Assembly (NCBI GenBank): GCA_001784175.1
Contig: MFPR01000002.1
Location: 62,001-110,685 of the forward strand
From: Candidatus Lindowbacteria bacterium RIFCSPLOWO2_12_FULL_62_27
GTDB lineage: Bacteria; Lindowbacteria; 2-12-FULL-62-27
Length of the DNA stretch: 48,685 nt
Direction: 5' to 3'
A program made the translations under genes and the position numbers. The notes beneath the pieces are model-generated. The model saw nothing but the letters and a program-made list of their open reading frames with translations, was not told the DNA's origin and made no database searches. This document shows, piece by piece, positions 14,001 through 48,685 of the stretch (positions are counted from its first letter, which is position 1; each line of letters begins with the position of its first letter).

Positions 14001-17000
14001 TGGAGGCCAACGTCAGGGTCGCCGGGGTGGCGGTGTCGTACCGCACGCCGGCGCCGGTGTCGACGCCGATCTCGATCGTGTCGATGCCCGCGAAGGTTTC
14101 GGTGTAGGTGCCGGAGATCGCGACGTTGGTATTGAAATTTTTGCCGCTGATTTCCGGATACGTGAACCGGGTGACCGGGGCCGTGAGGTCGAATCGGAAG
14201 GTGCGCGTAAACACGCCGGCATTACCTTTTTTATCCCGGCGCGATATCTGCAGTTGATACGTCCCCTCTTCGGAAACGGTGTCCAGGCGGTTGCCCAGAA
14301 TCAGTATGAGGCTGTCCCCGGCTGTGGCTTGCGACGTCTGCAGGATGGTCAGTCCCTTGAGGAGCGACAGGGTCGATACGCCGATGTCCACGCCGGAGAA
14401 ACTGTCGGCCAGTGGAACGACGACGCTGTCGACGTTCAACCCCACGGGCCGGTTTTCAAAGATTTCGTCGGAATCGCCGTTCCTCAAAACCTTCAGCACC
14501 GCCGGCGGCGTCACATCCAATATGATCGTCTGCGTGTCTTCGCTCATCCGATTGCCCGCCTTGTCGCCCGCGCGCGTGTAGATTTTGTAGAGGCCGTCGA
14601 ACCCGCCCGAGATCGACAGGGGGGTGGCGAGGTTCAGGGTGAATGTGACATTGCTGTCGTTGGTGAGGGAGCCGGGGACATAGAATCCGGCCGGATCGAT
14701 CAGCCGGACGGTGACGCTGTCGACGCTCAGGCCGGCGCCCACTTCGGTGAAGGTCACTTTGACGATCGACACGGATTCGGTCACGTTCGTGTCCGAGGGC
14801 GTGATGATCTTGGACCCCAACTGCACCGTGGCGATGGACGGCGCGTCGGAATCGAAGACGAAGGCCCGGTTCTCCTGCCGCAGGTTGCCGGCGCCGTCGT
14901 AGGCGGAGACGAGGATCTCGTATCGGCCTGACACCGGCGTCGAGTCGGAGAGCCAGAAGACGAGGAGGGAGTCGCCGGCAAGGCTCTGGACGCCGGCCAC
15001 GCCCTCGCCGGTTGTGGTGTTTCTGATTTTGAGGGTGGTGGCCGCCTGGTTGATGACGCCGCGGTAGTTGAATCCCAGATCGCCGGAGATGATGCTGGAC
15101 GAGTCGATGAGCTGAACCGCGATCGAATCGATGTACCCGCTCGAGCCGATGATCCGGCCTTCCGCCATCGAATCCCCGCCGCCCCGGTTGTTCAGCCAGA
15201 ACGCGCTGTTCAGCACCCTCGGGCCGATGCCGTCGACGATGAAGGAATCGCTCAGGGCGGACGTGTTGCCGGCGTTGTCCGCCGCCGCGACGTAGATGCC
15301 GTAGATGCCGTCCATCCGGCCGGAGCTGTCAATGTCCGTGGTCAGGCCGAGTTTGAGGGTGATCTGCTGGTTCCGCGTGGACTGCGTCGTCAGGTTGTTG
15401 GTCTTCGTGATGACAATGTCCACGCCCTTCGGATCTACGAACCTCGCGCCGGTGGTGGTCACCGGCGCGTCGATGCCGGCCACGTCCGTCGCCGACAGGC
15501 CCGCCGGCACGGGGTCTTCGACAATCACCTGGATCGTGGAATCGATGCCCTGGGTAATGGTCGAGTCGCTGTTGGTCAATGTCTTGTTGCTGAGTTTTTT
15601 GTAGACGATGGTGATTCCGCTCGTTAAAGTGACGGGATCGGAAAACAACCTGGGTTGCGTCACATCGTAAATGAATTGGGCCGTCTGCTTGCCCAAGGGT
15701 TGCGCGTTGCCGATGTTGTCCACGGCCGAAACGTCCACGGTGAATATCCCTTCGCCGCCGCCGGTGACCACGTTGTTCGGGATTCGCACCTGCCAGGTGT
15801 CAAACGTTCCGCCCGTGACGTTGGTATCGATGTAGCCGCCGGCGTCCAGGGTGCTGAGTTTCGTCTTCACAAGGTTGGGAGACGTCACCGACACGTCCAC
15901 CCTCGCCAGGCCGCCGCCCGTTCCCACCGGCGCGCTGCGGCCCAGCACCAGGATGTTCTCGTTGGCGGTGAAAGAACTCTTGGCGTCCAGTGGGCTTGCC
16001 TTTTTCGACAGCTCCTCCTGAATGGCCGTCACGCTCGCCACCGGCGCCACCGTGAAGATCCGGTAGAACACGTACTGGTCCTCCGCGCGGATTTCCAGGC
16101 TCGCCAGGTTCGCGTCGCTGTCGCCCGGCGCGCCGGTCGCAACGGCGATGGTGTCGAACCTTGAAAAGTCGACGGCGCCCGTCACCCGCTGGCCTACGGT
16201 GGCGCCCGTGTCGATGGTGAGCGTGTCTTCCAGCCCTCCGCCCCGGATCACCACACGCGTCTGCGTGTCGATTACATCGCCACGCACGATGACCACCGCC
16301 TTGCTCACCCTCGGCAACACCGTGTCCCCGCCCGACTCCGGACCGATCGCCACCCCCGCCGGGCCCACCCCTTTCAGCGTCACCTGCAGGCCGCTCCGCG
16401 CGCTCTTGTTTCCGACGGTGTCCGACGCCGTCGCGTAGACGATATGGGACCCGTCCCCGAGCGTGAGCGTCGTGCTCCACAGGCCCGTCACCGAGTCGGC
16501 CTGTATGCTGCCGACGTCGGCGCCGTTCGCATTCAGCGTCACCAGCGCGCCGGGTTCGGCGGCGCCGCTGACCAGCTGGCCGGCGCTGCGGGCCGTCAGA
16601 TTGTCGGCCGCGAAAATCTGCGGCGGCAGCGGGCGGCTGTTGTCGATCAGGACGTCGCCGCCGGCGGTCAGCACCTGGCCGTTCGTGCCGTCCACGGCCG
16701 TGATCTTCCAGAAATAGGTCCGGGTCGCGCTCGGACTCAGGATCGCGCCGGCGTCGTTCTTGCCGCGAAATGTAAACGTCCGGACGGCGGGGAACACGAA
16801 TAAGGTCACGCTGTCCGTATAGACGGGGACCGTGTCCGACGCGCCCGCGAACACCTGAAATCGGATCGACGCCGAATCTTTCACACCGCCGACGGCGTAA
16901 CTGATCGATGCGAAATCGTTGACACCGTCGGCGTTTTCCGGACTGAGCTTCGTCGGGGTGATGGTGACGCCCGTCAGCGCAAACGGCGTGTTGTCGATCT

Positions 17001-20000
17001 CGACCTCGCTCGATACTTCCGCCGTCAGACCGTTTCCATCGACCGCCGTCACCAGCACCCGGTACAGTCCGTCCGGCTGGCCGCTGCCGTCCCATACCAC
17101 CCGCGTGTCCGTCCCGTCGCCGGTCGCCGTGAAGATCGGCTTGCCGGTCACCAGCACGCCGGTCGCCTTGGAATAAATGTCCACCCGGCTGAACACCGCG
17201 CCTGTCGTGGTGTACCGGATCGCCGTCACGTCGTCTTCGCCGGACGTCACGGCCGGACTGAATGGATTGGGGATCGGCGACTGCGTGAGCGTCACCACGG
17301 GCGGCACGACGTCCTTTACGCCCTTCACCGTCACCGCCGCGCGGTTCCCGCCCTTGTCCGTCACTCGAATCTCAAACGAGTACGTGTCGTCCGGCACCGG
17401 ATTTTCGCTCACATCTTTTCCGTCCCACACGATCGCGTTCTGCCCCGCGACCTGCGCCGCGCCTCCCGTCGGCGCCGTGTCGATGAACGCCCCGTTGCTC
17501 CCCTGGATCACTACCAGGGCGGTATCCACGGACTCGCCTAACACATATTTGATCGTGGCGCCGTTGGCGCCAAATACCCCCGGATCGACCGTCGCGTCGC
17601 TGATCTGCGGTGGCGTCACGTCCACAATTCCCGTGTCGTACCGGATCACCAGCGTGTCGCTGGTCGGGCTGGTGTTGCCCGCCGCGTCCACCGCGTAGGC
17701 CACGATCCGCCAGTCGCCCAGCGTGTCGCCGAGCCGTGTGAAATTGATCGTCCCCAGCCACGACGCCGTGCCCGACGCCGCGCTGTCCATCCGCGCGACC
17801 GTTTCCGACGCGCCGAAATCCGCGCCCGGCAGATACACGCGGACGAACACTTTCGCGACGATCCCGGTCGTGTCGGTCGCCACGCCCGTGACGGCGATCG
17901 GGCCCGCGTTGAACTGCGCGTTTTGCGCCGGCGTTGTGATCCGCGCCTGCGGGTTGTCCTTGTCGAACACGAAGGTTGTGGTTTCGGCCATGAAGTTTCC
18001 GGCGCGGTCAATCGCCTGGACGGCGAGGGTGTAGACGCCGCTCTGGGATGTGAGGCTGAGGGCGGAGGCGCCGTCGAGGGCGCGGCCGAGGGTGTCGGGG
18101 CCGTCGTTGTAGACGAAGGCGCCGATGGACGCGCCGGTCGGATTGATGAGCCGGACCGTGGTCGTTTCGCCGTAGGCCGTGAGGTCCGCCGTGTCGCCGG
18201 CCGGTCCGGTGTTGGTGTCGTTGAGGTCGACGCCGACGAACGTCACGCTGTCGCCGAATGCGGCGCCGGCGGTGAGCGTGTCCTCCACCGCGGCGGCGCT
18301 CACGCCGTGCGTGATCAGATACCGGGCGACCTTCGGTTTGACCGTGTCGTACACGACGATCCGAGTGTCTTCGGTGACGTTGCCGGCTTTGTCGACGGCC
18401 CGGACGACCACGGCGTAGAGTCCGTCCTCGGCGCCGTCGGTCCGGCGGCCGAGGTTGAACGGCGTGGTATCCGCGGGGAGATGGATGGTGAAGACCAACT
18501 CGGCCGGCTCAAATTGCCGATTGGCGTTTCTGTCCAGGAAGACGCGAAGGGTCGAGGGGTTCGACAGGGCCGTCGAAATGCCCGCGCCGGCGTCCGTCAG
18601 GGACACCGCGATGGAATCGAGGCTGTTCACAAACGCGCCGGAATCAAGGGACCGGTCGATAAAGACCGCCGCGCCGGTCGTGTCGAGCGCCGGGCGTTTC
18701 TGCAGAACGGCCGCGACGACCGGCGCGACGTAGTCGCTGACGCTGGTGATCCTGGCCGACGCGTATCCGCGGGTGACCGGAATGTCGGTGTTTCCGGTGT
18801 CGGCGAAGACCAGGCCGTCGGACGCGATCCGGACGCGGAACGCGTCCCCCGAACCGATGGTGGCCGAAGTCTGCAGGACGAGGAAGAAGTCCGACCCGGC
18901 GAAATCGTTGGCGTCCGTGTCGGGCACGCTCGTGTCGCCGTAGACCGACAGCGTCAGAGTCGCGCGGTATGTATTGCCAAATCCGTCCCAGGCGAGGGGC
19001 GAGGCGTCGGGGAGGATGGCGTCGGAGGAGTCGAAGGCGCCGGTGACGAGGCCGTTGTCCCGGGCGATCGCGAGGCCCGAATCGGCGTGGAGATCGGCCG
19101 GCGTGAATCCGCCGAGGTCGTCGATGGTGACGGTCAGTTTTTTGAGGAACGGCCCGGATGTGCCGTCGCGGGTGTTGAGTCCGAAGACGGGGAAGAATCC
19201 GGAGGAGTTCAATATCTGCGTGTCGCCGCCGAGCATGTCCGCGACCGTCACCGGCATCTGCACGGAGATCGTGTCGGTCCGGACCTCGTAGGCCGGCAGG
19301 GTCTGGGCGTTGTTGAAGACGAGGCCGCCGGCCGGAATCCGAAGCCGGGCGCGGTCACGGAAGGCGGCGGTGGCAGAGGTTTTCAGGGCGATGTAAAAAT
19401 CCGGCCCGAGATTGCTGAGCGTGTTGGCGGCCGGAACGGTTTCGGACACCGACAGGTACAGCGTCGCCGTTTCGGCGGCCGTCCAGGCCGGGACGCCCGC
19501 CAGATGGATCCGCCGGTCGAGCGCGTCAAACACTCCCTCGATCGGGCCGTCGTCCCGGTAGAACTGCAGGCCCCCCGTCGTGTCGTTGGCGAGGGCGGCG
19601 AGGTCGGTGGAGTCGAACCCGCCGAGATTGTCGAAGGCGATCTGCACCGCCGTCAGGCGTCCGCCGCTGGTGGGGTCGGTGATGTCGAGCGCGAAGACGG
19701 CGACGGTGTCGGACGGCGCGGGGACCTGGGCGGGCGTGAGGTTGGAGATGCTGACGGCGATCCGGGGTGAGACCTGGATGAGGAACGTTGTTTCGTGAAT
19801 GTTCGTGGCCTCGTCCACCACGCGGAGCTTGATCGTCAACGCCGAAACCTGGGCGGTGGGATCCACGTAGAAGGTCCACTGCGCCTGGGTTTCGCCAAGC
19901 GTCCCGCGCGCCATGTCCTCGTCGATGAGCGGGAAGAGCTCGGCGCCGATCGGCGTCTGGATGCCGGAGGTCTTGCCCTCCGACAGGACCTGATTGGACC

Positions 20001-23000
20001 CCGTGTACTTGACAAACGGCACGCTGTCGGTCACGGACATGAGGAACACCTCGTCGATCCCGCGTTCATAGACGCCGGCCTTGCCGCCCGGATCGTCCGC
20101 CCAGAAATCGCCCCGGGATCCGGCCTGGGCGAAGAACGAGCCCCAGTCGTCGTTCGCGTTCGTGGAATCGGGAGACTCCTCATCCCGCAGGCCGTCGCTG
20201 TCGTTGTCCGCGCCGTCGCCCGAAAGGACCGCCTTGGAGTAATTCAGCCCGCCGTCCATGCTGACGAGGACGGACTGGATGGAGGACAGAAGGCCGCGCG
20301 GGGACGCCGTGGCGTCGGCCAGACCGGTGATCCGGATCGACCCGCTGTCGTCATACACGGTGACGGTGGTCTTCGGCCGCGTGGAATCGAGCGTGAAGAT
20401 GGCCGTCCGGGTCTCCTCGTTGCCGTTCCCGTCGACCGCGACCACTTCGAACGTGTAATCTCCGTCCGGCAGGCCGAGGGACGACACTTGGATCTTGAAG
20501 TTGACCGAGTCGGACGGAACGAGCGGGGACACGGCGTAGGAACCGGAGAAGGCGCCGGTTCCCTCCTTGTACCGGTAGCGGATGTTCGTCACGGTCGACA
20601 CGTCGGTCGAAATGCCCTCGATCCGGGCCAGCCGGTTTTCGTTGCCGATGAGCGAGATGATGGTCGCGGCTACAGAGTTGAGCAGGGGCGCGAAACTTGA
20701 TGCGGTCGTGTCGAGCTCCATGATCTGGCCGCCGGTGTTGAACGCGAGCGGGAACAGCTCGGACTGGCCGGCGAGTCCGGCGGTATCGGTGACGAGGAAC
20801 AGGGTGACGCCGGCGCGGACCAGGCTGTCGGACACGGTCTGGATCCGGACCTTGCCCGTGGGCTCGTGCCCGAAATTCTTCGACTCGGCGTCCGTGATCA
20901 GCACAAAGAACCGCTTGGCGCCCGGTGTCGCCAGGTTCAGCGCCTCCAGCGTTCCCTCCAGGGACGATTCCGGCAGGTCGCCGCCGCCGCTGGCGGTGAG
21001 CTGGGAGACGTTGTTTCGGAATGTGTTGATGTCGGCGGTGATCCCGTAATTCACGACGGCCGGATTGTCCACGTCGACATCCTTGAAGGTCACCAAGCCG
21101 AGGTTGAGGGGGATGCCGGCGTTGAGGATCTGGGTGGCGAAGGAGGTCACGTTGTTTTTGACGCCGGTGATGGCGAATCCCATGCTGCCCGTGATGTCGA
21201 CCACGAACACGACCTCGGCCGTCGGCGAGATCGCGGCGGCGTCGGCGTTGTTCGTGAGCTCGATGTTGACCTTCGGGAAATTGATCGTCATCGCGGGCTT
21301 CGTGAAATCGCTGACGCTGGTGATCCTCGCCGTCGCAAAGCCCCGCGTCACCGGCGCGTCCGTGTTGATCGTGTCGCCGAAGACCAGATCGTCCGAAATC
21401 ATCCGGACGCGGAACGCGTCGCCGGCGCCGAAGGTGGCGGACGTGCGCATGAGGATGAAGAAGTCGCTGCCCGCAAGGTCATTGCCGTCCGAGTCCGGCA
21501 CCGATGAATCCGTCGCCGCCGAGAGCGTCAGGGTTGCGCGGTAGGTGGCGCCGAACCCGTCCCACACGAGGGGCGTGGCGTGCGACAGGATCGCGTCGCC
21601 GGTGTCGAACACGCCCGTGTCGAAGCCGTTGTCCCGCGCGATCGAAAAGCCGCTGTCGGCGTGGAGGTCGGAGGGCGTGAATCCTCCGAGGTCCTCCACG
21701 GTCAGCGTCACCTTCTTCAGGAACGGCCCCGGCGTGCCGTCTTTCGCGTTCAGGCCGAACACCGGAAGGTAGCCGGACGACTCGCGGATGCGGGTGTCGG
21801 CCTCGATCAGGCGCGTCACCCCCACCGGCATCTGCACGACGATCGTGTCGGTCCGGACGTCCGCGGCGGGCGAGATTTGCGCGTTGTTGAAGGCGATGCC
21901 GCCCCGCGGGATCCGGAACCGCGCGCGGTCGCGGAAGGCGGCGGAAGAGGAAGTTTTGATGACGACGAAGAAGTCCGGGCCCGCGTCGTTGCCCGTGTTG
22001 TTGATCGGCACCGATTCGGAGGTCGAGAGAACCAGTCCCACGGTTTCGTTTCCGCTCCATGCCGGAACGCCGCCCAGGGTAAGCCGCTGGTCGAGCGGGT
22101 CCAGCGAGCCCGAAACGATGCCGTTGTCCGCGTAGAGCTGGACGCCGCCGGTCGTGTCGTTCGCGAGCGCGGCAAGATCGGTCGAATCAAACCCGCCCAG
22201 GTTGTCGAACGCGACCTGCACCGACACCAGCCGGCCGCCGGCGGTCGGGTCGGAGATGTCAAGCCCGAAGACGGCGATGGTGTCGGACGGCGCCGGGACC
22301 TGGGCCGGCGCGACATTCGTGACGGCGACGGATATCTGGGGAGATATCTGGATCGTGACGCTGGTCTCCAGGACATTGCCGGCCTCGTCATGAACGCGCA
22401 ATTTCACGTTCAGGGTCGGCTGGCCGGGCGGCGGAAGATAGAAGGTCCACCGCGCGAGCGTGTCGGTCAGCGCGCCCGTTCCCACGTCCTCGTCGATCAG
22501 CGGGAACAGCTCTGAACCGATCGTTGTCTGAACGCCGGCGGTTTTTCCCTGATAGAGGACCATGTTGGCGGCCGTGTATTTCACAAAGGGGACGCTGTCC
22601 GTCACCGACATCAGGAACACCTCGTCCACGCCGGGCTCGAACACGCCCGGCCGGCCGGCCGGATCGTCCGCCCAGAAGTCCCCGCGGGCGTCGGCCTGCG
22701 GAAAGACGGTCGACCAGTCCTCGTTCTGGTTGGTCGAGTCGGGCGACTCTTCGTCCACGACCCCGTCGCTGTCGTTGTCGATCCCGTCTCCTGAAGTGAC
22801 CGCCGAACCGTACGTCTTGCCGTCATCGACGCTCACCGCGACGCGCGTGATGCGGGTCCGCCGGCCGCGCGGGGACGCGGTGGCGTTGGCGAGGCCGGAC
22901 AGCCGGATGGACCCGCTGTCGTCGTAGACGCGCAGGTCGGTCGAGGGTTTCGTGGAATCGAGCGTGAAGGTCACAGAGCGGGTGTCCTCGTTGTCGCTCT

Positions 23001-26000
23001 CGTCCGCGGCCGTGACCTCGAAGGTGTACCGGCCATCGGGCAGGCCGAATCCGGAGACTTGGATTTCAAACAGGGACGCGATGTTGGGCGTGATCGGCTG
23101 CGTGAACGGCCCGGTATATCCGCCGGCGGCGTCCTCCTTGTAGCGGTACCGGACGGTCTTGATCCGGTGGTTGTCGACGGCGTTGCCCTTGATGATGGCC
23201 AGCGTGCTGGTGGTGGTGGTTTCCGTGACGGTGGTGCTGACGACCTGGATCTTGGTGGCGAACTGGCTGAAGACCTGGTTCAGGGTGGCCGAATTGGCGG
23301 CCGACACGAATGTCCCGCCGGTCTTGCTGGCCACCTGCTGCATGATATTGGCGAGGCTCTGGCTGTTCGCAACGGCGCTGCCGAACGCGATGGCGTCGAC
23401 CACGATGCCCGCGGCGGCGGCGGTATCGGCGGCTATCGGGACCGCGGCCGGATCGTTGGGTTCGCCGTCGGTCAGCAGGATGATCCGCTTGTTGTTCGCG
23501 GTGGATTTCGTCACGAGTTCCTTGACGGCGAATTCGATGGCCTCCGCGGTTCCAGTGCCGCCACTGGCTTGGAGAGCGGAGATGACGGTCGTGAGTTTTG
23601 TTTTGTCGCCCGTGAGGTCCTGTTCGAGTTTCGGGGTGGATTCAAAGCTCACCACCGAAATCTGGATGCCGGACCCGATCTGATTGATGAAATTGATCGC
23701 GGTCTGCTTGGCCACTTCCATCCGGCTCATCGTGTCGGGCGAATCGATGGACCCCATGCTGCCGGACACGTCGATCAGCAGGACGACGTCCACCGACGTG
23801 GTGGTGGTGACGGTGGAGGCGACCTGGACGTCGGTGAAGGGCACGTTGGTGAGGAGCGCGCCGTCGGCCGGGTACACCAGCGACACCGTCGGTTTCATCT
23901 TGTCAGCCGTGGGCGCCGCCTTGACCGGCTTTGTGGTGACGGTCCTCTGGCTCGCGCCGGAATCGAATTTCGCGCCGCCCGCGAGAATTTTTACCTGGAA
24001 CTGGTCGCCCACCGAGAAATTCTCGGCGGTGCGGACGACGATGTAGAAGTCGGACGTATCGTGTGTGCCGGTATCGAACGGCGGAAGCGCGCTGTCGGGC
24101 ACGTCGATCGTGAACAGGTAATTGCCGGCCGAGTCCTGCTGGATAGCGGTTGGCGTGGAGGCGACGGAGACGAGCCGGTGGTCGGTCGAGGCGCTGAACG
24201 CGCCGGTGTCGGTCGCGCCCGAATCGATCCAGAGGTCGATCGCGAGCAGGTCCTGGAGCGTGAATCCCAGGCCGGGCGTCACGGCCACCACGATCGTGTC
24301 CAGCCGGAGTCCCCGGCCGGAATCGCCCACGTCGATCCCGATCACGGCGCGCGTGTCCTGCGACAACATCGAGTCCGTGGACGTCGTCAGATCGATCAGA
24401 TTCAGGCGCGGCAGGACCCGGATGACGCCGCTGGTGTCCGCAAGGCCCGAAACCCCGTCGTTGAACTGGATGCCGCCCGGCGGTATGCCGATCACAAACG
24501 TGTCGCCCGGCCGGGCCCACGGGGCGGTCTTGACGACCACGAAGAAGTCATTCCCCGCGTCCGCGCCGCTGTCCGAGAGCGGGACCGATTGTGGCTCGCT
24601 CAAAGCCAGTGTCAACCGGAAGCCCGGCCCGCTGTCCCAGACCGGCGCGCCGCCCGGCGCAAGGCGCGCGTCAAACGTGTCGAAGACGCCGTCCTGCGAT
24701 CCATTGTCCCTGTAGATGGCCACCCCGTTGTTTCCGCCGCCCACCGGCAGGAGGATGTTGTCGAGGTCGGTGTCGGCCTGCAGGGTGACGGCCTGAAGTG
24801 TCTTGGCGGCGGATCCCATGACATTGATGCCGAAGAGGACGACATGGTCGCTTGCGACGTCGATCGCGTTGGGCGCCAGGTTCGCGATGACGGCTTCGGA
24901 CGTGAACGTGAAGACGAACGTGGCGGTGTCGGCGTTGCCGGCCTTGTCCTGAATGAAGATGGTCAGAACATAGGTGTCGTTTTCCGTCACGTCGTCCAGA
25001 ATGTTCCCACCCGTCAGCGTCAAGAGGAGGCTGTCGGCGCCGGCGAAGTTGGCCGTGCCGGTCGTCGAGCCGAGCAGGGCGCCGGTGGACCCGCGCGTCA
25101 GGGTCAGCCGGGCGGTTGGCGTGTCGACGCCCGAGAACGCGACCACGGTCGGGCTCGAATCGGACACCGCCACCCAGATACGATCGACCGCGCGGGTCAC
25201 GACGTTGTCCGCCGCCGTCAGCGCCTTCGCCACGCCGCCGGTCCGGACGTTGAACGACGCGGATCGGGCGGCGGTATTGTCCAGCAGAATCCTCGTGCGC
25301 GTGTCCTCCGCGATGTTGCCGGTATTGTCCTCCATGTGGAACACGATCGCATGGTAGGCGTTGGCGGCGGCCGCGAAGGTCAGGGTGTCAACGGCGGCGG
25401 TCAGATTGACCGATTGAAGAACGTCCGGGCCGTCTCCATATATATTATTGCCGTTCAGATCGCTGATCAGGCTCGCCCGCGTCGCGCCCCCGACCAGCTT
25501 GACGCCCGCCGGCTGGTCCGAGATCGCGTAGGCGAACACGGTCGTGCGCGTCATGGCGCCCGAATCCGGCGCGAGGCTCGTGAGGACCGGCCCGGCGGTG
25601 TCGCTGATGATCTTCGAGGACACCACGCCGCGCGTCACCGGGACGTCCGTGTTGGTCGTGTCGCCGAAGACCAGATAGTCGGGCAGAATCCGCACGCGGA
25701 AGGATTCGCCCAGACCCATGCTCGCGGACGCGCGGATGAGGACGAAGAAATCGTTGCCCGCGAAGTCGCCGCCGTCCGTGTCCGGCACGCTTGTGTCTCC
25801 GGCCGACGAGAGCGTCAGGGTCGTGCGGTAGATGTTGCCGAAGCCGTCCCAAATGAGGGGCGACACGTCGGCCAGGATCGAATCGGCGGAATCGTAGACG
25901 CCCGTGTCGCTGCCGTTGTCCCGCGCGATCACGAGGCCCGAATCGGGATCGAGGTCGGACGGCGTGAATCCTCCGAGGTCCTCCACCTCGATCGTGACCT

Positions 26001-29000
26001 TCTTCAGGAACGGACCCGGCACGCTGTCCCGGACGTTGAGTCCGATGACGGCCGTGTAGGCGGCCGTGTTCAGTATCTTCGGGTCCGTCGTCAGAAGGTT
26101 CGCCGCCACCACCGGCATCTGCACTGTGATCGTGTCGGTCCGCACGTCGGCGGAAGGCACGGTCTGCGCGTTGTTGAAGACGATGCCGCCCTTCGGAATC
26201 CGGACCCGCATGCGGTCCCGGAACGTTGCCGTGGCCGAGGTGCGGATGACGACGTAGAGGTCGGGCCCGATCTCGGAGCCGGTGTTCGCGACCGGGATGG
26301 TTTCGGACACCGACAGATATAGCGTGACCGTTTCGGCCGCGCTCCAGACCGGCGCGCCCGACAGCGGGATCCGCTGGTCCTTGCCGTCGAATACGCCCGA
26401 GAGCATCCCGTCGTCGCGGTAAAGCTGGATGCCGCTCGAGCTGTCGTTGGTCGTTGCGGCCAGATCGCTCGAATCGAATCCGTTCAGATTGTCCAACGCC
26501 ACCTGCACCGCCGTCAGCCGGCCGCCGGCCGTCGGGTCCCACAGGTCGAGCCCGAAAACCGCGATCGTATCGGACGGCGCCGGCACGCCGGCCGGGGCCA
26601 GGTTCGAGACGCTCACGGTCAGGCGCGGAGAGATCGCGATGGTGAATACCGTGTCGTGTGCGTTGCCCGCCTCATCGATCACGCGGAGTTTGACGGCGAG
26701 AGACGTGACGTTCGATCCGGGATTGACGTAGTAAATCCACCGGGCCTGCGAGTCAGTGAGACCCGCCTTGCCCATGTCTTCGTCGATCAGCGGGAAGAGC
26801 TCGGCTCCCACCGGCGTCTGAACGCCCGCAGTCTTGCCCTGCGACACGACCTGATTGGCGCCGGTGTACCGCACGGCCGGCAGGCTGTCCGACGGGATCA
26901 TGAGGAAGACTTCATCGACGCCGGGCTCGAACACGCCCGCCTTGCCGGCCGGATCATCCGCCCAGAAATCTCCGCGGGCGGAGGCCTGCGGGAAGACGGC
27001 CGACCAGTCGTCGTTCTGGTTGACCGAGTCCTGATATTCCTCGTCGACCACGCCGTCCTTGTCGTTGTCGACGCCGTCGCCGGACAGACTGGCCGTGTCG
27101 AAGGTCGACCCGCCGTCCAGGCTGATCTCGACTTTCCGCACCTTGCTCACGCGCCCGCGCGGCGACATCGTGGCGTCGGCGAGGCCGGACAGCCGGATGG
27201 ATCCGCTGTCGTCGTAGGTGGTGGACGACGTGGTGGGCCGGGTGGAGTCGAGGGTGAAGACGATTGTTTTTGTGTCCTCGTTGCCGCGCTCATCGGCCGC
27301 GATGACTTCAAATGTGTACTGGCCGTCGGCGAGGGTGAATCCGGACACCTGGATGTTGTAGTTGATGTTGGCCGCGGGCGTGATCGGCAGGGTGAACGGC
27401 CCGGAATAACCGCCGGCGGCGTCCTCCTTGTACCGGTACCGGATCGACGTGATCTTGAAGTTGTCCGTCACGGTGCCGCGGACGGCCGCAAGCGTGCTGG
27501 TGTCGATGAGGACGCTGGCGAGTTTCTGGGCGAACTGGGTGAAGTAGGCGTTGAGTTCGTTCAGATCGTTGGCCCGGGTCATGATGCCGCCAGTCTTGGC
27601 GGCCATGTCCTGCATGAGGATGAGGTCGGTGCCCACCAGGGACGGATTGAAAATCACCGGGTCGACCACCACGAAGGACTGGACCGCCGTGTCGGTCGCC
27701 GCCTGCACCACCGTGTCCGCCTCGGTCGGCCTGCCGTCCGTCACCATCATGATCCGCTTGTTCGTCGACGCGAGGTTCGCGTTGACGTACTGGACGGCGA
27801 AACTGATGGCGGTGCCGGTCGCGGTCTGGCCGCCGGTGGTCACGAAGCCTGATATTTTGTTCTTGAGCGCGGTCTTGTCCGTCGTGAACGTCTGCTCGAT
27901 CCGCGTCAGCTCCGGCGTGCTGAAGGACGCGATGGCGATGCGGATGTTGGGATCGACCTGGTCGATGAACGACAGCAGCGCTGTCCGAGCGTCCGACAAC
28001 CGCGTGGTGCCGGAGCCGGTCGATGCGTCCATGCTGAGGGACAGATCGAGCAGAACGACGAGGTCCATGCTGCTGACGGGATTAAAGATGAACGGATTGT
28101 TGGACAAAAGCGCGTTCGCGGACGGATAGACGATCGTCACGGCCGGCGCCTGGTTGTCGGCGGTCGGCGCTGCGGTTACGGTCTTCGTGATCATCCCGCG
28201 GCGGCTCGGCCCCGAATCGAAGATTGCGCCGTGCGGCGCCACGCGCACCTGGAAGACGTCGCCGTTCGTGAGCGAGGCCGACGTGCGGACGATGACGTAG
28301 AAGTCGGAGGTGTCGTAGGCGCCCGTGTCAAAGGCCGGCAACGGGGTGTCGGGCAGATCAAGGGTGAAGACGTACTGGCCGCCCGAATCGAGTTTGGCGT
28401 TGGTCGCGTTGGACGCGACCGAGACGATCATGCTGTCGGTGAACCGGTTGAACGTGCCGGCGTCGGTGGAGCCGGAGTCAATCCAGATTTCAACCGCGAT
28501 CAGGTCCTGCAGGGAGAAATTGGTAATCGGGACGATGCTGACCGCGATCGTGTCCAGCCGCAGGCCCCGGCCGGTGTCGCCGACGTCGATCCCGATCACG
28601 GCTTTCGTGTCCTCGGCCGTCACGGAATCGTTCGCGACGGTGAGGTCGATCAGGTTCAGGCGCGGTAGAATCCGGATGACCGGCGACGTGTCCGAAATCG
28701 ACGAGAGGCCGTCGCTGAATTGAATGCCGCTCGCCGGGATGATCACCACAAACGTGTCGCCCGGCCGCGCGTTCGTCGAGGTCCGGATGACCACGTAAAA
28801 GTCGCTGCCCGACGCCGAGCCGCTGTCCGACGCCGGGATGGCCTGCGGCGCGGTCAGGGCCAGCGTGATTCTGAATCCGCCCAGCCCGCTGTCCCACACC
28901 GGCGCGCCGCCCACCGGCAGGAGCGCGTCGGTGGTGTCGAAGACGCCGTCGATCGTTCCGTTATCGGCGTAGATCGCCACGCCGCCTGATCCGGCCGGCA

Positions 29001-32000
29001 TCAGGATGTTGTCGAGGTCGGTGTCGGCCTGGAGCGTGACCGCCTGGAAGGTCTTGCTGGCGACGCCGGCCATGTTGAGTCCGAAGAGCGCGACCTTGTC
29101 GCTGCCGACGTCGATCGAGACTGGCGCGAGGTTGGTGACGTTGACTTCGGCAGTGAAGGTGAAGACGAAGGTGATCGTATCCGCGTTGCCGGCCTTGTCC
29201 TGCTTGAAGACCGTCAGGAAGTAGGTGTCGCTTTCGTCGATGGCGTCGATGATGTTGGCGCCGGCCAGCGGGATGGCGATGCTGTCGGCGCCGGCGGTGT
29301 TCGCGGCGCCGATGACGGTCGAAAGGACGCTGCCGTTGCCCCGCGTGAGCGTCACACGGGACACGCCGGTGTCGACGCCCGAAAACGCCAGGACGTTGGG
29401 GTTCGAATCCGACAGCACGACCCAGATGAGGTCAATCGCCTGCGATACGATGCTGTCCGAGGCCGAGATGACCTTCGGCGCGCCGCCCGCGCGGACGTTG
29501 AACGACGTGGCGCGCGCGACGGTGTCGTCGAACAGAATCCGGGTGCGGGTGTCCTCGGTGACGTTCCCGGCGCTGTCCTCCATATGGAAGACGAGGGCCT
29601 GCCGGGCGTTGGTGACGTTGATGAAGGTCAGGGTGTCGGCGGCGGCCGTCAGGTTGAGGGTCTGCGCGACATCCACGCCGTCGTTGTAGACGTCGTTGTT
29701 GTTCATGTCGGTGATCAACCGCGCCCGGCTCGTCGCGCCGCTCAGTTTCAGGCCCGCCGGAAAGTCCGTGATCGAATACGTAAATACGGTGGTCCGCGTC
29801 GTCCCGCCGGTGTCGGGCGACAGCGCCGACAGGACCGGGCCGGCGTTGTCATAGGAGAATTTGCGGGCGAGCTGGAAGATGTTGCCGTTGTTGTCCCGCG
29901 CCACGGCCGAGGCCTGGTAGATGCCCGGCGGGGGCGTGCTGTCGGTGAGCCAGAAGTAGGCGCGGTTGCCCTTCTTGAATTTCGTGCCGGTGATCGTCGC
30001 GCCCGTGGTGGTGTTGATGAGCGTGAGGATGTCGCTCGTGGCGGTGTCGATCCCGGCGGTGTAGCCGCTGAGAGACGTGTCGACGAACTCGACGCTGAGG
30101 GTGTCGAGTTCGGTCGAGAAGGCCTCGTTCTCCTCGATCGTGTCGTTGATCGTCCCGCTCAGGCTGTCGCCCCGGTACCAGTTCCAAGCCGAGGGGAAGG
30201 TCATGTCGACGATGAAGAGGCGGGTGTCGTTCAGGATGTTCAGCGCGTGGTCCCGCGTGCGGAATTCGATCAGGTAGGTATCGTCGTGCAGGCCGGTCTT
30301 GGACAGGGCCAAAAAGAAGGTCAGGGTGATCTTGGAATCCGACGTTGCGACCGACAGCGTCCCGCCGATTTCGACGTCGACCGAATCGATGATGTTGTTG
30401 CTGTTCTCGTCGCGCCAGACCTTGGCGTAGGAGACCCCGCCCTGTGTCGTCAGCCGGCCGTCGATCTTCGTCAGGTTGTCCGACGCCGTCACTTCGACCT
30501 TCGTCAGGCCGTTTTGCGTGTCGTTGACGACGGTCGTCGCCGGCGCCAGCGCCGAGATGCTCGGCTTCGTCTGGTCAAACACAAACGTCTTGTCGTCCGG
30601 GTCCGTGCCGGTCGTGGCGTTGGCCTCGAAGTTCCCCGCTGCGTCGACGGCCTGCGCCTGCACTTTGTACGTGCCCTCGCCGCCGGCGGTCAGGGTCGCG
30701 GACGGAATGACGGCCGAATACGTGTCATAGCCGAGGCTCTGCCAGTTGGAGACGGTGTCGGCCGACTCGATGTAGGAGCCGAAGGTGCCATCGGGATTCT
30801 GGACCCGGATCCGCGCGCGCCGCATCTCGCCCGAGGGCGTGGACCGGCCGAAGACAATGAGGGGGCCGGCGTTGAAGGGACTGGTCTGCGAGCCGCCCTG
30901 GACGATGATGGTCTGAACGTCGGCGTCCGGCGAGAGGGTGTCGATGCGGAAGAAGGTGAATTGATCTTCGGCCCGGACCTCGACTGAGGTCAGGTTGACG
31001 TCGCTGTCGGCCGTGTCCGCGGTCACGACGCCCATGACCGAGACTGTGTCGATCCGCGTGAAGAGTTTGGTGAGATCGCCGGTTACCGCCTGGCCGACCT
31101 CCGTGCCGGTGTCAAGCGTGATCGTGTCCTCGAGGCCCCCGCCGCGGACCACCACGCGCGTCTGCGTGTCGATCTTGTCGCCCCGCACGATCACCACGAT
31201 CGGGCTGGCCCGCGGCAGAATCGAATCGCCGCTCACCGCAACGCCCGTGTCGCCCACGCCCTTGAGATTGACGCTCCCGCCGCTCGAGATGCTCTGGTTG
31301 CCGTCCGTGTCGGTGGCGCGGGCGAAGACGACGTTGAATCCCTGGCTGAGCGGGATGGTGGTCGTGAACGCGCCGGACACGGACGCGGTGACGCTCACTG
31401 CGAAAATGTCGTTCACCGAGATGTCCACCACCGCGCCCGGATCGGCCTGGCCGGTCACGATCGAACTCGTCGCGGACAGCGACAGGTTATCGGCCGTCAG
31501 AATCTTGGGCGCGGCCGGACGCTTGTTGTTGATGACGACTTCGCCGCCGGCCGTGAGAACCTCGCTGGTCGTGCCCTCCAGCGCGGTGATCTTCCAGAAA
31601 TAGGTCTTGATGGCGGCCTGCGACAGATACACGCCGGCGTTGTCCTTGCCGAAAAACACGAAGGATTTGCCCGCCGGATAGACGTTCAGGGTGTGGCTGT
31701 CGGTGAAGACGGGGGCGGTGTCGTTGGCGTTGGCGAAGATCTGGAAGGTGACGGTCGACGTATTTTCGGCGCCGTCCACTTTGTAGCCGATCGACGCAAA
31801 GTCATTTTTCCCGTCGGCCAGAATCGGCGAGATGCTGGTCGGGGTGAGGGCGACGTTGGTCAGCGAGAACGGCGTGTTGTCGATCCGGACCTCCGCGCTG
31901 GCCTCGGCGGTGAGGCCGTGCCCGTCCGCGGTCTTGACGACGACCCGGTACAGGCCGTCGGAGAGCTTCGTGCCCTTGTTGCCGTCCCACGTGACGAGGG

Positions 32001-35000
32001 CGTCCGTCACGTCGCCGGTCACCTGGTTCAGGGTCTTGACGAGCGCGCCGGTGGCTTTCGAGTAAATCTCAACCCGGCTGGTCGCGGCGCCGATCGTCGA
32101 GTACCGGATGGTCGTTGCGTCCTTGTCGCCCGGCGTGACTTCGGGGCTGAAGGGGCTGGGCAGCGGAGACTGCGTGATGGTGACGACCGGCGGCACCTGG
32201 TCCTTCACGCCGGTCACCGTCACGTTGGTCTTGTTGCCGCTCTTGTCCGTCACCCGGATCTCGAAGGTGTAGGTGTCGTCCAGCACCAGATTGCCGTTGA
32301 TATCTTTTCCGTCCCACACGATCACGTTCTGGCCCGCGCTCTGGGACACGCCGGCCGCGGTCGGCGCCGTGTCGATGAAGGTTCCGTCGCTGGCCTTGAT
32401 CACCACGAGGGCGGTGTCGACGGTTTCGTTCAATACATATTTGACGGCCGCGCCGTTTCCACCGAACACCGCCGGGTCGACCACCGCGTCCGAAATCACG
32501 GGTGCCGTCACGTCCGCGATCCCCGTGTCGTACCGGATCACCAGCGTGTCGCTGGTGGGGCCGGTGTTGCCCGCCGCGTCCACGGCGTAGGCCACGATCC
32601 GCCAGTCGCCCAGCGTGTCGCCGAGCTGCGCGAAGTTGATCGTCCCCAGCCACGATGACGCGCCCGACGCCTGGCTGTCCATCCGCGCGACCGTTTCCGA
32701 CGCGCCGAAGTCCGCGCCCGGCAGATAGACGCGCACGAACACTTTCGCGACGCTTCCGGTCGTGTCGGTCGCCACGCCCGTGACGGCGATGGGGCCGACG
32801 TTGAACTGTGCGTTCTGCGCCGGCGTCACGATCCGCGCCTGCGGCAGGTCCTTGTCGAAGATGAAGGTCGCGGTTTCGGACATGAAGTTGCCCGCGGCGT
32901 CGATGGCCGTCACCACGATCGTGCAGACGCCCGCCTCGACCGCGAGGTCCAGGATGTTGCCGCCGACGAGCTGCCGGCCCATCGTGTCGGTCGCGGATTC
33001 GAAAACGAACGAGCCGACTTTCTGGTTGGCCGCGTTGTAGAAGGTCACGGTCGTGGTGTCGTTGTAGCCGGTCACGTCCGTCGTGTCGCCGTTCGTGCTC
33101 GGGGCGGTGTCATCGAGGTCGACGCCGGCGAAAATTACGCTGTCGTTGTAGGCCCGCGTCGCCACGAAAACCTCCTGAATCCCCGATCCGGTCGCGGTCA
33201 CGGGAATGGTCTCCGTGACGCTCACGCCGGATCCGTGGACGATCACAAAATTCTGCCGCGTGGGTTTGACGGTGTCGTACCGGATGATTCGCGTGTCTTC
33301 CTGGACGTTGCCCGCGCGGTCGACCACGCGGACCCACAGGGCGTAGTCGCCGTCCTGCGTGCCGTTGGTCTGCCGGCCCAAGCTAAGCGTGCTGACGTCG
33401 ATGGCGCCGGGGGTGCCGCTCGCGTTGAGGTTGAGGGCGGTGACCGCCTCGCTGAACGTCGCGTCGCCGTTTTCGTCCCAGATCCACCGCAGTTGCGGCG
33501 GGGTGTCGGCGCTGACGCCGGTCACGGTGTCGCCGACGCGGATCACGATGTTGTCCAGCTTGGGCGTCTTGGCGCCGGTGTCGGGCGAAATCGAGAAGAA
33601 CGGCAGTTGCGCGTCGTACCTGAAGGTCCGCTTCTCGCTCTTCTGGTTGCCCGCGCGGTCGAAGGCCGTGATCTGGACCTCCAGCTCGCCGCTGACCGGC
33701 GTTGAGTCGGTCAGCCAGAAAATCGCCATCGAATCGCCGGCCGTGCTCACAACGCCCGCCACACTCTGGCCCGTGGTCTTGTTCGTGGCGCTGATCGAAC
33801 TGCCGGCGAGGTTGATCCCTCCGTTGAATTTGAAGCCGATGTCCGTCGCGACCTGGCTGGAGGAGTCGGTGAGCAGGATGACGATCGAGTCGATGACCTG
33901 CGTCGCGCCGAAGATCTGGCCCTCCGCGATGGTCGCGCCGCTGCCGCGCTCGTTCACATAAAAATTGCTCCCGATTACGGCCGGACCCACGCTGTCGACC
34001 ACGAAGGAGTCGGTCAGGGTTGCGGTGTTGCCCGCGTTGTCCGACACCACGACGTACACGCCGTAGACGCCGTCCTTGCGGCCGTCCGGCGCGATGTCGA
34101 AGACGAGGTCCATCGTGACCTGATCGCCGGGCACCGGGCCGTTGTGACTCAGGACAATTCCGACGCCGGCGCCGGACGGGTCGACCAGCCGGCCGGTGCC
34201 GGTGGTGGTGTTGATGTCAACGCCGGAATTTTTCTGGCCGGTCACGGGCGCGGCCGGGTCGGTGAACTTCAGGCGGACCTTGCCGACGGACGTGCGGACG
34301 GTCGTATCGAAACTCGTGAGGGTCTTCGAGCCGGCCGCCGTGTCGTCCACGATGAGGAATCCGGCGCTGATGAAGGCCGGCGCGGTCTGGTCCAGCGTGA
34401 ACTCGAACGCGGCCGAGGTGTCCTGGTTGCCCGCCTCGTCGACGGCGACCGCTTCGACCTTGTAATCGCCGTCGCCGCCGGCCAGCAGGTTCGCGTTTGG
34501 CAGGCGCGCCACCCACGTGTCAAACGCGCCGCCCGACACGGCCGTGTCGGGGTTGTTGAGGCCCGCAAAGTCCGTCGTGCTGACTCTGACGGTTGTCTTG
34601 TTCGGCAGCGTTACCACAACGTCGACGCGCTTGAGGCCGCCGGTCTTGCCGGCCGGGGTGCTTCGGCCCAGAATCAGGATGTCTTCCGACGGGTCCTGGA
34701 TGCTCTTGCCGTTGAAGGGACCGACCTGCCCGCTGGCCTCCTCTCTGGCCTGCGTGACGCTCGGCAGGGGTGCGACATTGTCGAGCCGTAAAAAGACGAA
34801 TTGATCTTCCGCGCGCACTTCGAGTGAAAGGCCCGTCGCGTCGCTGTCGCCGGATTTGACGCCGATGGTGTCGAGCCGGCTGAAATTTATGTTGCCGGTC
34901 ACGGCTTGGCCGATGAGCGTGCCTGTGTCGATCACAATCGTGTCCTGCAGCGACCCGCCGCCGACGACGACCACCGTGCGCGTGTCGACGTTCGAGCCTC

Positions 35001-48219: not shown

Positions 48220-48220
48220 C

Positions 48221-48238
48221 NNNNNNNNNNNNNNNNNN
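48221..48238. other. Assembly gap (18 N) with overlapping flanks
   Basis: CGCGGTCCACC occurs at 48210-48220 and again at 48239-48249. Confidence 0.95.
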
Positions 48239-48239
48239 C

Positions 48240-48683
48240 GCGGTCCACCGCGACGTAATGCAGAAAATACTTGCCGACCTCCGACAACGCGTCGATGACG
48301 GTGCCGCCCGTGAGCTCCCGCACCATCGTGTCCAGCGCGGCGTCGCTCCGGAACAGGCCCATCTTCTGGCCGGTCTTCGCGTTGATCAGCTCCACCGTCG
48401 TCGTCTCCCCGTAAAAGCCGATGTCGCTCACCCGGCCGTTGGGGCTGGGCGCGCTGTCCCGCAGGTCCACGCCGGCCACCGTGATCGAGTCGTTGAAGCC
48501 GGCGCCGCTCGCGAACGTGTCCACTCGCTGCACCACGCCGCCGTGCTTCACAAACGTGCTGTCGGCCACCGGCTTCACCGTGTCGTACGTCACCAGCCGC
48601 GTGTCCTCGTATTTGTTCCCGGCCTTGTCCCACACCCGCACCACCAGCGCATACTCCCCGTCCTGCGAGCCGTCCGTCGCGCG
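48240..48683 (-). CDS. Upstream continuation of the same giant gene beyond the assembly gap (open at the right edge)
   Basis: Reads VRVWDKAGNKYEDTRLVTYDTVKP...GVDLRDSAPSPNGRVSDIGFYGETTTV...GKYFLHYVAVDR, homologous to modules I/J of the super-repeat. It joins the main frame when the 11-bp overlap across the gap is collapsed. Confidence 0.85.
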
Positions 48684-48685
48684 CG

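Follow-up and report, generated by a model that had tools for sequence, protein, structure and literature searches.

How does a giant bacterial protein carry von Willebrand factor A (vWA) domains in the middle of a rod of immunoglobulin (Ig)-like repeats: each in line with its neighbours, or each nested inside one of them? The question is raised by a 48,685-nucleotide stretch of DNA (the window) from Candidatus Lindowbacteria bacterium RIFCSPLOWO2_12_FULL_62_27 (GenBank assembly GCA_001784175.1, contig MFPR01000002.1, here contig C2, positions 62,001 to 110,685), whose minus strand holds part of a giant gene, including three vWA modules. An initial annotation, made from the sequence alone, had described each vWA as interrupting an Ig-like domain. 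Sequence profiles and structure models lead us to the same answer: the three vWA domains are very probably nested, each within one split Ig-like host domain.

The minus strand of the window is a single open frame of 16,228 amino acids (aa), open at both ends; module positions are given as residues of this window protein, with window coordinates alongside. At the genome level the frame comprises at least 22,286 aa, with no stop over 66.8 kb. The window reaches the end of contig C2; from it the frame runs downstream to a stop at C2:43824, and the gene is truncated at its 5′ end, the upstream frame entering an N gap ~150 codons before the contig ends. Pfam families found along the giant protein are Big_13, FlgD_ig, Big_3_x, and Big_6. 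The segment at 20389-28158 (minus strand) translates into 2,590 residues with zero stops and contains all of the peptides quoted in the initial annotation. The PF00092 VWA profile matched this segment with an E value of 1.8e-39, in exactly three stretches, in agreement with the three domains annotated there; Pfam gave no vWA in the other three pieces of the window protein. Every window module (m1, m2, and m3) is composed of a 23-residue N piece, a vWA insert, and an 88-residue C piece. In the list below, E values are from a hidden Markov model (HMM) of the C-terminal half of the host, and pLDDT is the predicted local distance difference test score of the AlphaFold models.

1..48684, minus strand: part of the giant open frame, mostly Ig-like repeats (open-frame listing and Pfam)
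28096..28164, minus strand: m1 N piece, strands A and A′ of the predicted split Ig-like host, residues 6841-6863 (alignment, conserved columns)
27499..28095, minus strand: m1 insert, 199 aa, residues 6864-7062; entry linker, classical vWA (DLSLS ... TDG), exit linker (Pfam and alignment)
27235..27498, minus strand: m1 C piece, residues 7063-7150 (C-half HMM E 1.6e-51; Big_13 positions 57-101 of 102)
26623..27234, minus strand: m1 follower, Ig-like with a ~100-aa acidic insert (DGxDNDxDG ... FWADDP ... LIDED) (sequence; model of the homologous m2 follower)
23842..23910, minus strand: m2 N piece, residues 8259-8281 (alignment; AlphaFold strands 17-22 and 27-30, pLDDT 74-78)
23209..23841, minus strand: m2 insert, 211 aa, residues 8282-8492; Thr-rich linkers, classical vWA (DVSGS ... 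GGT ... TDG) (Pfam; pLDDT 79-93)
22945..23208, minus strand: m2 C piece, residues 8493-8580 (C-half HMM E 1.9e-50; pLDDT 81-90)
22336..22944, minus strand: m2 follower with acidic insert (sequence and model)
21247..21315, minus strand: m3 N piece, residues 9124-9146 (alignment; AlphaFold strands 17-22, pLDDT 83, and 27-30, pLDDT 75)
20638..21246, minus strand: m3 insert, 203 aa, residues 9147-9349; integrin-beta-like, VWA_4-type vWA (DITGS ... GGGDLPES ... TDA) (Pfam VWA_4)
20374..20637, minus strand: m3 C piece, residues 9350-9437 (C-half HMM E 2.4e-46; pLDDT 85-94)
19762..20373, minus strand: m3 follower with acidic insert (sequence)
L001:6689-7747 = G000:C2:49689-50747, minus strand: m4, nested vWA module in the giant gene
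L001:4097-5059 = G000:C2:47097-48059, minus strand: m5, nested vWA module in the giant gene

The last two modules, m4 and m5, lie downstream of the window at full-frame residues 19,980-20,332 and 20,876-21,196, ~1,100-2,300 residues from the C-terminus of the giant protein, and the five heads fall in two clusters that are widely separated on the rod. The initial count of three heads is right for the window, then, while the gene has five. The placing of the heads over 6,000 residues from either end likewise holds for the window only: the real C-terminus lies 12,848 residues after m3, and the N-terminus is missing.

All three window inserts belong to the vWA superfamily, exceeding the curated cut-offs of PF00092, PF13519, or PF25106. 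The m1 insert matched VWA_2 with an E value of 2.3e-16 (60.8 bits; cut-off, 27) and VWA with 1.9e-15; the m2 insert matched VWA over profile positions 1-173 of 174 (E 1.1e-21, 78.2 bits; cut-off, 23.8); and the m3 insert matched VWA_4, PF25106 (E 3.7e-17, 62.8 bits; cut-off, 27), ahead of VWA (E 2.3e-7). The metal ion-dependent adhesion site (MIDAS) of vWA domains is formed by a DxSxS motif, then a Thr, then an Asp. Alignment placed motifs of this type in each insert: DLSLS/TDG in m1, DVSGS/GGT/TDG in m2, and DITGS/GGGDLPES/TDA in m3. In m2, the linkers that enter and leave the vWA (23209-23260 and 23790-23841, minus strand) are both rich in Thr and come out as strands in the model (residues 40-46 and 236-242, pLDDT ~50); they may form a two-stranded neck below the head. 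The linkers of m1 and m3 are shorter, and m4 has an extra ~30-residue insertion ahead of its exit linker.

Evidence for a split Ig-like host domain

The N piece follows the pattern D-x3-P-x6-P-x7-N, and its D, P, P, and N columns (D12, P16, P23, and N31) are invariant in 9/9 modules. The C piece matches the last third of Big_13, and the RYRY motif occurs only three times in the 16,228 aa, once per C piece. The C-half HMM found 62 stretches over the window protein, among which the three modules were strong (E 1e-46 to 1e-51); the next best had an E value of 2.2e-7, and stretches of that kind cover the last strands only.

A host profile was built by deleting the vWA columns from the alignment of ten modules, and was compared with nine uninterrupted Ig domains from the same protein. 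The joined profile aligned over 102 columns, across the junction, with an hhalign probability of 86.8% and an E value of 4.3e-6; one of the uninterrupted domains, at residues 1443-1552 (D-L-P-x-A-R-I-V-T-P ... F-N-x-G-P-I-A-V-T-G), has the same start as the host. In a control without realignment, the joined profile scored 35.0 versus 28.9 for the C piece alone, and none of 20 shuffles of the N columns reached 35.0 (best, 32.6). Judged from these alignments, the contribution of the N piece appears real but modest.

Two modules were modelled with AlphaFold2. The model of m2 with its follower has a mean pLDDT of 71.1, with the N strands (residues 17-22 and 27-30) at 74-78 and the Ig part (residues 248-326) at 81-90; in the m3 model (mean pLDDT, 79.5), the same two N strands are at 83 and 75 and the Ig part is at 85-94. 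Low-confidence linkers flank the N strands in both models, and the constructs held no preceding domain. A structure search (VIA) with the m2 model matched 4fx5 (Z 26.3, root mean square deviation [rmsd] 1.7, 179 residues aligned) and 6tnj (Z 26.1, rmsd 1.8, 190 aligned). It also matched domains D1-D3 of Mfa5 (6to1; Z 23.2, rmsd 7.4, 250 aligned), where model residues 15..327 correspond to chain residues 103..543, so that this Mfa5 match, among the best found for m2, extends from the N strands through the vWA to the Ig part.

Profile alignment, the N strands of the models, and the match to 6to1 all point to a vWA that is very probably nested in a split Ig-like host, with the two host pieces predicted to pack together. 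The initial annotation had placed each insert after the first strand of the Ig domain. An early position is borne out, and the models show two short strands (17-22 and 27-30) before the insert, not one.

Hosts, inserts, and the follower cassette

The annotated contrast between homologous hosts and divergent inserts is borne out by pairwise identities. Host pieces are 62% (m1-m2), 49% (m1-m3), and 45% (m2-m3) identical, whereas the corresponding figures for the inserts are 37%, 17%, and 21%. The ten aligned modules carry two kinds of insert: classical VWA/VWA_2 domains in m1, m2, m5, L006, L008, and P0073, and VWA_4 (integrin-beta-like) domains in m3, m4, L003, and L004. Against four foreign, non-nested proteins, P0154-P0157, the m3 insert scored 47.8-73.9 bits (60-74 for three of the four; E 1e-10 to 9e-20), whereas against the m1, m2, and m5 inserts of its own protein it scored 15-29 bits. 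All four foreign proteins pass the cut-off of Pfam Integrin_beta (PF00362). The m3 insert was not listed against PF00362 at E <= 0.001, L004 gave 22.2 bits against it (below the cut-off of 24.8), and the m3 model matched integrin beta chains with Z 17-18 (VIA). Since m3 is nearer to foreign VWA_4 proteins than to its own neighbours, the sequences indicate that a single conserved host carries two pre-existing vWA subfamilies at one loop, which is best explained by a single ancient exchange of the insert.

Trees of the hosts and of the inserts were computed with all 10 rows kept. The sole supported group in the host tree was (m5, L006), at 97/96, and that in the insert tree was (m3, m4, L003, L004), at 100/100. 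The best host tree already contains the (m3, m4, L003, L004) clade, at 31/78, and the insert data are compatible with (m5, L006), which was not rejected (approximately unbiased test, p-AU 0.284). A conflict between host and insert trees, which would have been proof of insert swapping, was looked for and not found. When the four genomes of the phylum were searched for the host C piece (alignment A4), 10 matches reached E <= 1e-6, namely nine vWA modules and one weak, distant Ig domain. No empty host, nor any host with another insert, such as the initial annotation had suggested looking for, was found among the strong C-piece matches in these four genomes, 9/9 of which carry a vWA. Its term "exchangeable" is apt insofar as two vWA subfamilies occupy one host; the trees without conflict and the uniform vWA content of the hosts do not bear it out further.

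A follower domain with the signature DNDxDG ... FW(A/V)DDP comes directly after the module in 5/5 cases. It is an Ig-like sandwich broken by ~100 acidic, conserved residues (DGxDNDxDG ... FW(A/V)DDP ... LIDED), and at 64-65% identity among m1-m3 it is better conserved than the host pieces (45-62%) or the inserts (17-37%). The acidic insert is poorly predicted (pLDDT <50 for residues 388-483 of the m2 model), and its loop has a sequence resembling a calcium site. The follower has no Pfam family and gave no usable match in a search of the ESM Atlas. Module, follower, and two to four unnamed beta-rich domains make up a super-repeat of ~860-1,430 residues, and the module is duplicated as one unit together with its follower. 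Repeated domains of ~160 residues lie between the modules, for example, at window positions 24001-25500 and 25585-26607 (minus strand), with a motif like G-x-D-F-F-V-V-I-R-T ... G-D-x-F-x-V-x-I. They have no Pfam family; 24001-25500 matched no NCBIfam family, and 25585-26607 gave no sequence match in the PDB at E <= 1.

The phylum is sampled by four representative genomes, and the same cassette is present in two of the three others, from sister genera: one (G001) has three modules and the other (G002) has one, in long open frames of 2,861 and 4,462 aa. No module was found in the remaining genome, which is 88% complete (G003). The cassette also occurs, with the same kind of C-terminal domain, in P0073, a 3,910-aa protein from an organism of very different composition, which has many copies of the ~160-residue inter-module domains. 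Among the best 150 of 12,650 vWA matches, the nested module was shared only by P0073 and by P0004, a fragment identical to m1, as judged by reading the four proteins whose match spanned the whole query. A homologue search for longer proteins gave two matches, with coverage of the vWA only, and searches of the genome contigs with A6 and P0073 as queries found no relative. A metagenome scan returned six loci. Five were taken, untranslated, as the organism's own sequence, on the grounds of a 100% match or a contig shared with such a match, and L013, which was translated (L013:2-2551), is identical to m1 up to the point at which it breaks off. Both P0004 and L013 are identical to m1 and its follower and then pass into unrelated or frame-broken sequence, which suggests that assemblies often break inside this repeat-rich giant gene.

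Two further observations concern the window itself. An N run lies at ~48220-48237, and beyond it, at 48238-48685, the translation is Arg/Gly rich and apparently out of frame; these last ~450 bases may be a misjoin. Opposite the giant gene, two plus-strand frames exceed 1,000 codons (23059-26322 and 37072-40317, plus strand), most likely as shadows of a sequence with 65% G+C.

Proposed working of the heads and its alternatives

Heads of the vWA type bind ligands through a metal ion. We consider it probable that the giant protein is a surface fibre whose split-Ig vWA heads act together as a multi-headed fibrillar adhesin. The fibre, of at least 22,286 residues, would be a rod of Ig-like domains, with a split Ig at three sites in the window and five in the gene. 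At each site, host strands A and A′ would come first, then a whole vWA of ~190 residues, and strands B to G would then close the sandwich. The chain would pass on to the next rod domain, leaving the rod continuous while each head stands off the rod axis, its MIDAS facing away from the junction. With two kinds of head (classical in m1 and m2, integrin-beta-like in m3), the fibre would recognize at least two kinds of ligand through their acidic residues, and binding would be multivalent and depend on metal. The sideways position of the heads on a continuous rod would follow from Ig topology and from the literature on adhesins of the repeats-in-toxin (RTX) type. Giant bacterial proteins have repeatedly been linked to cell-cell adhesion (bioRxiv 10.1101/2023.11.21.568195).

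The C-terminus bears on the putative route of export. The last 60 aa of the giant protein matched the C-terminal domain (CTD) part of the PorU model with 19.3 bits and an E value of 1.8e-4, below the curated cut-off, and the C-terminal beta-sandwich weakly resembles a FlgD-Ig domain or a sorting domain of the type IX secretion system (T9SS). The protein is probably exported and anchored via a T9SS-type sorting domain. In the genome, 32 places match the CTD-like end of the PorU model, also below the cut-off (e.g., C40:24895-25299, C6:180768-180995, and C19:21325-21558), and many such matches end very long frames (10,454, 9,114, 7,200, 5,498, and 5,224 aa). Several PorV-like barrels, below cut-off, are present as well. 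The organism seems to devote considerable resources to giant surface proteins that are sorted in this way.

A different role would follow if the heads served as internal connectors, with the vWA metal site binding the acidic loop of the follower, either as a latch within one molecule or between fibres as a metal-dependent mesh or sheath. Self-association would explain both the strict coupling, with an acidic-loop follower after 5/5 modules, and the conservation of the follower above that of hosts and inserts; the cassette is also retained in P0073 and in the sister genera. By established Ig topology, moreover, the A′-B loop from which the vWA emerges is at the end of the host that abuts the follower. 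In its fullest form, the cassette would be a self-complementary unit, a latch or a zipper knitting fibres of >2 MDa into an extracellular mesh, and the m3 type, an integrin-beta-like head in a hybrid-domain-like sandwich, would be a counterpart in prokaryotes of the integrin headpiece, with its ligand built in. The two-domain model gives no direct evidence of contact, however, with a predicted template modelling score (pTM) of 0.45 and a pLDDT of <50 in the acidic insert (388-483). Two vWA subfamilies, one with a different make-up of the site, would have to share the same conserved loop, and the nested vWA heads of Mfa5 and RrgA are read as outward adhesins (PMC7835359). We consider self-association, whether as connectors in general or as the complete self-complementary unit, unlikely.

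Several observations weigh against a multi-headed adhesin built on split Ig domains. The N-terminus of the giant protein, including any signal peptide, is missing from the contig; T9SS components fall below curated cut-offs (PorV, 70.5 bits versus 250; SprA, 69.9 versus 200), as does the PorU CTD-like region of the protein itself. Modules m4 and m5 have degenerate versions of the first MIDAS motif (DITTG and DATTG, respectively), and m5 also lacks the TDG aspartate, having SLG instead; judging from these sequences, some heads may not bind metal. (The first motif of L008 is degenerate, too.) On the structural side, hhalign gives a moderate probability (77-87%), inclusion of the N piece raises the score by only ~6 units, and the alignments under the AlphaFold models are shallow (10 rows). 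The packing of the N piece onto the C piece is deduced indirectly, from the profile alignments, the match to 6to1, and the docking of the two pieces. The multi-domain alignment to 6to1 has a poor rmsd (7.4) and was not repeated with m3, whose model aligned to 6to1 over the vWA only (39..234); among the matches listed for m3 there were vWA domains only, and no nested multi-domain analogue. Two-chain docking of the N piece against the C piece gave a score of 0.48, versus 0.02 for the best of three controls, a verdict of "weak support." In the benchmark for this test, whose counts hold only roughly for our self-built alignments, 116 of 157 solved complexes and 2 of 215 mismatched pairs attained the mark; just 18 of the 157, and both of the passing mismatches, did so at scores of 0.60 or less. 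The docking runs agreed in at least 89% of contacts, at a partner pLDDT of 61.

These structural points bear on whether the modules might be simple beads on a string, with a tandem vWA, an N piece that is a linker or the tail of the preceding domain, and a following Ig that is complete by itself. The N piece taken alone aligned at the correct template positions, with a score of 13.1 and an E value of 0.039, which is not significant similarity to strand A of an uninterrupted Ig; its two strands might in principle form an isolated hairpin; and P0051 and P0115, among the best vWA matches, look by eye like a vWA followed by an independent Ig-like domain. Against this stand the four invariant columns of the N piece and its register with the start of uninterrupted Ig domains, where its score beat 20/20 shuffles. 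The C piece, moreover, could be aligned only from template position 31 on, that is, without strands A and A′. The N strands reached pLDDT 74-83 in both models with the preceding domain absent, and the docking score, weak as its support is, far exceeded that of the best control. Beads on a string are thus quite improbable, and nesting in a split host remains the reading that we adopt.

An assembly artefact, in which the modules would be chimeras or repeats collapsed within a metagenome bin and the gene would not be real in its present form, is hardly credible: the contig does end within the gene, with an N gap near its end, and P0004 and L013 match m1 exactly before breaking into unrelated sequence, but the frame runs for 66.8 kb without a stop, the three modules are 17-62% identical and hence not collapsed copies, and homologous modules occur, in long frames of their own, in independent genomes from two sister genera.

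Known systems and what the modules add

In the pilus proteins GBS104, RrgA, and Mfa5, an IgG-like domain is interrupted, once its first two strands are complete, by the von Willebrand factor (vWF) domain (PMC7835359), so that the precedent of RrgA and GBS104 invoked in the initial annotation is real. The same arrangement, a vWF-type domain after two Ig strands, was found in the m2 and m3 models and in the alignment to 6to1. Mfa5, from the tip of the type V/Mfa1 pilus of Porphyromonas gingivalis (6to1 and 6tnj), resembles the giant protein in having a MIDAS-bearing vWF domain after two Ig strands and Ig-like stalk domains; its D2 domain is divided between residues 105-135 and 423-544, and the vWF domain follows the first two strands (PMC7835359). 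It differs in being a pilus subunit with a single head, whereas the giant protein has five heads in one chain of >22,000 aa. The vWF domain of Mfa5 also has a 98-residue ARM2 insertion, and its D2 domain has a Lys-Asn isopeptide bond, whereas the vWA of the giant protein is compact (~190 aa). No ARM lid over the MIDAS was found: the inserts are 199-211 aa including linkers, and the models show the plain vWA order of strands and helices, with no extra subdomain. As judged from sequence only, there is no sign of the isopeptide bond, with no conserved Lys in the N piece and none at all in the first strand of m1. The host domain has no detectable sequence relation to that of Mfa5.

RrgA of Streptococcus pneumoniae and GBS104 of S. 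agalactiae likewise nest a vWA in a CnaA-like Ig domain, after the same two N-terminal strands (PMC7835359). Unlike the giant protein, both are pilins assembled by sortase, each with one head, ARM1 and ARM2 insertions, and isopeptide bonds. Their structures were not among the matches listed in the searches with the m2 and m3 models. Assembly from pilus subunits, by sortase or by strand exchange, does not apply to a single polypeptide with five heads, and Pfam listed no pilin or sortase-signal family along the at least 22,286 aa.

A single N-terminal strand opens the split Ig-like domains of RTX adhesins; a ligand-binding domain held off axis comes next, and then the rest of the Ig-like fold (PMC10865825 and PMC12077191). 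The giant protein has the same order of short N strand, whole insert, and bulk of the fold, according to the profile and the models, and shares with these adhesins a discontinuous Ig that would project a binding domain, in several units per protein (PMC10865825 and PMC12077191). The split domains of RTX adhesins carry sugar-, peptide-, or RTX-type binding domains instead, and in AhLap, as it is described there, a vWFA domain buds from the RTX beta-roll and not from an Ig-like domain (PMC12077191). Their units lie near the distal C-terminal end of substrates of the type I secretion system (T1SS), whereas the heads of the giant protein are in two far-apart clusters. No C-terminal RTX beta-roll or T1SS signal was recognized in the giant protein, whose C-terminus weakly resembles a FlgD-Ig or T9SS-type domain instead, and the Pfam listing for the entire 22,286 aa does not include HemolysinCabind (RTX repeats). 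RTX adhesins also have an N-terminal retention domain with a LapG cleavage site, a region that would lie in the missing 5′ part of the giant gene.

The integrin beta headpiece is a further known example of the nested architecture, its beta-I domain, a vWA fold, being inserted in the hybrid domain, a beta-sandwich. The likeness is closest for m3, with an insert of the integrin-beta-like branch (VWA_4, 62.8 bits) and outside relatives that pass PF00362. Unlike integrin beta, the giant protein lacks PSI, EGF, and tail domains (Pfam listed no PSI or EGF domain along it) and an alpha-subunit partner; m3 itself is below the PF00362 threshold, and any homology between its host and the hybrid domain would be hypothetical.

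By domain content, the giant protein resembles the fibrillar adhesin-like proteins of Monzon et al. (PMC8286594), which combine an Ig-like stalk with adhesive domains. Within that class, VWA ranks second in frequency among adhesive domains (659 hits, 19%), and in Bacteroidetes many adhesive domains are mid-protein (PMC8286594). The class is defined by domain content, regardless of nesting. The giant protein exceeds typical members several-fold in length, and the follower in its cassette has no Pfam family.

The architecture itself is known already, then, from Mfa5, RrgA, GBS104, and the split Ig-like domains of RTX adhesins, and for this reason the modules are of value less as a new principle than as a clear example with well-defined limits. 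The new elements are a carrier that lies outside the RTX class, has >22,000 residues, and comes from a phylum sampled by four representative genomes; the repetition of the unit five times, in two distant clusters; the presence of two vWA subfamilies in one host domain; and the fixed pairing with an unnamed acidic-loop domain. A limited search of the literature on split domains, RTX adhesins, von Willebrand domains, Mfa5, fibrillar adhesins, and giant genes, which is not proof of absence in print, found no description of a vWA-bearing split Ig repeated along one chain. In practical terms, the module coordinates provide exact construct boundaries for expressing the heads, and they illustrate how domain annotation with linear profiles misses the N-terminal strand of split hosts. 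Split Ig-like domains have been proposed as a marker for the ligand-binding parts of giant adhesins (PMC12077191). The modules described here extend that rule to a protein that is neither an RTX adhesin nor a pilus tip: five copies of the unit can occur on one rod, one host can bear two vWA subfamilies, and the unit travels with a conserved, unnamed partner domain.

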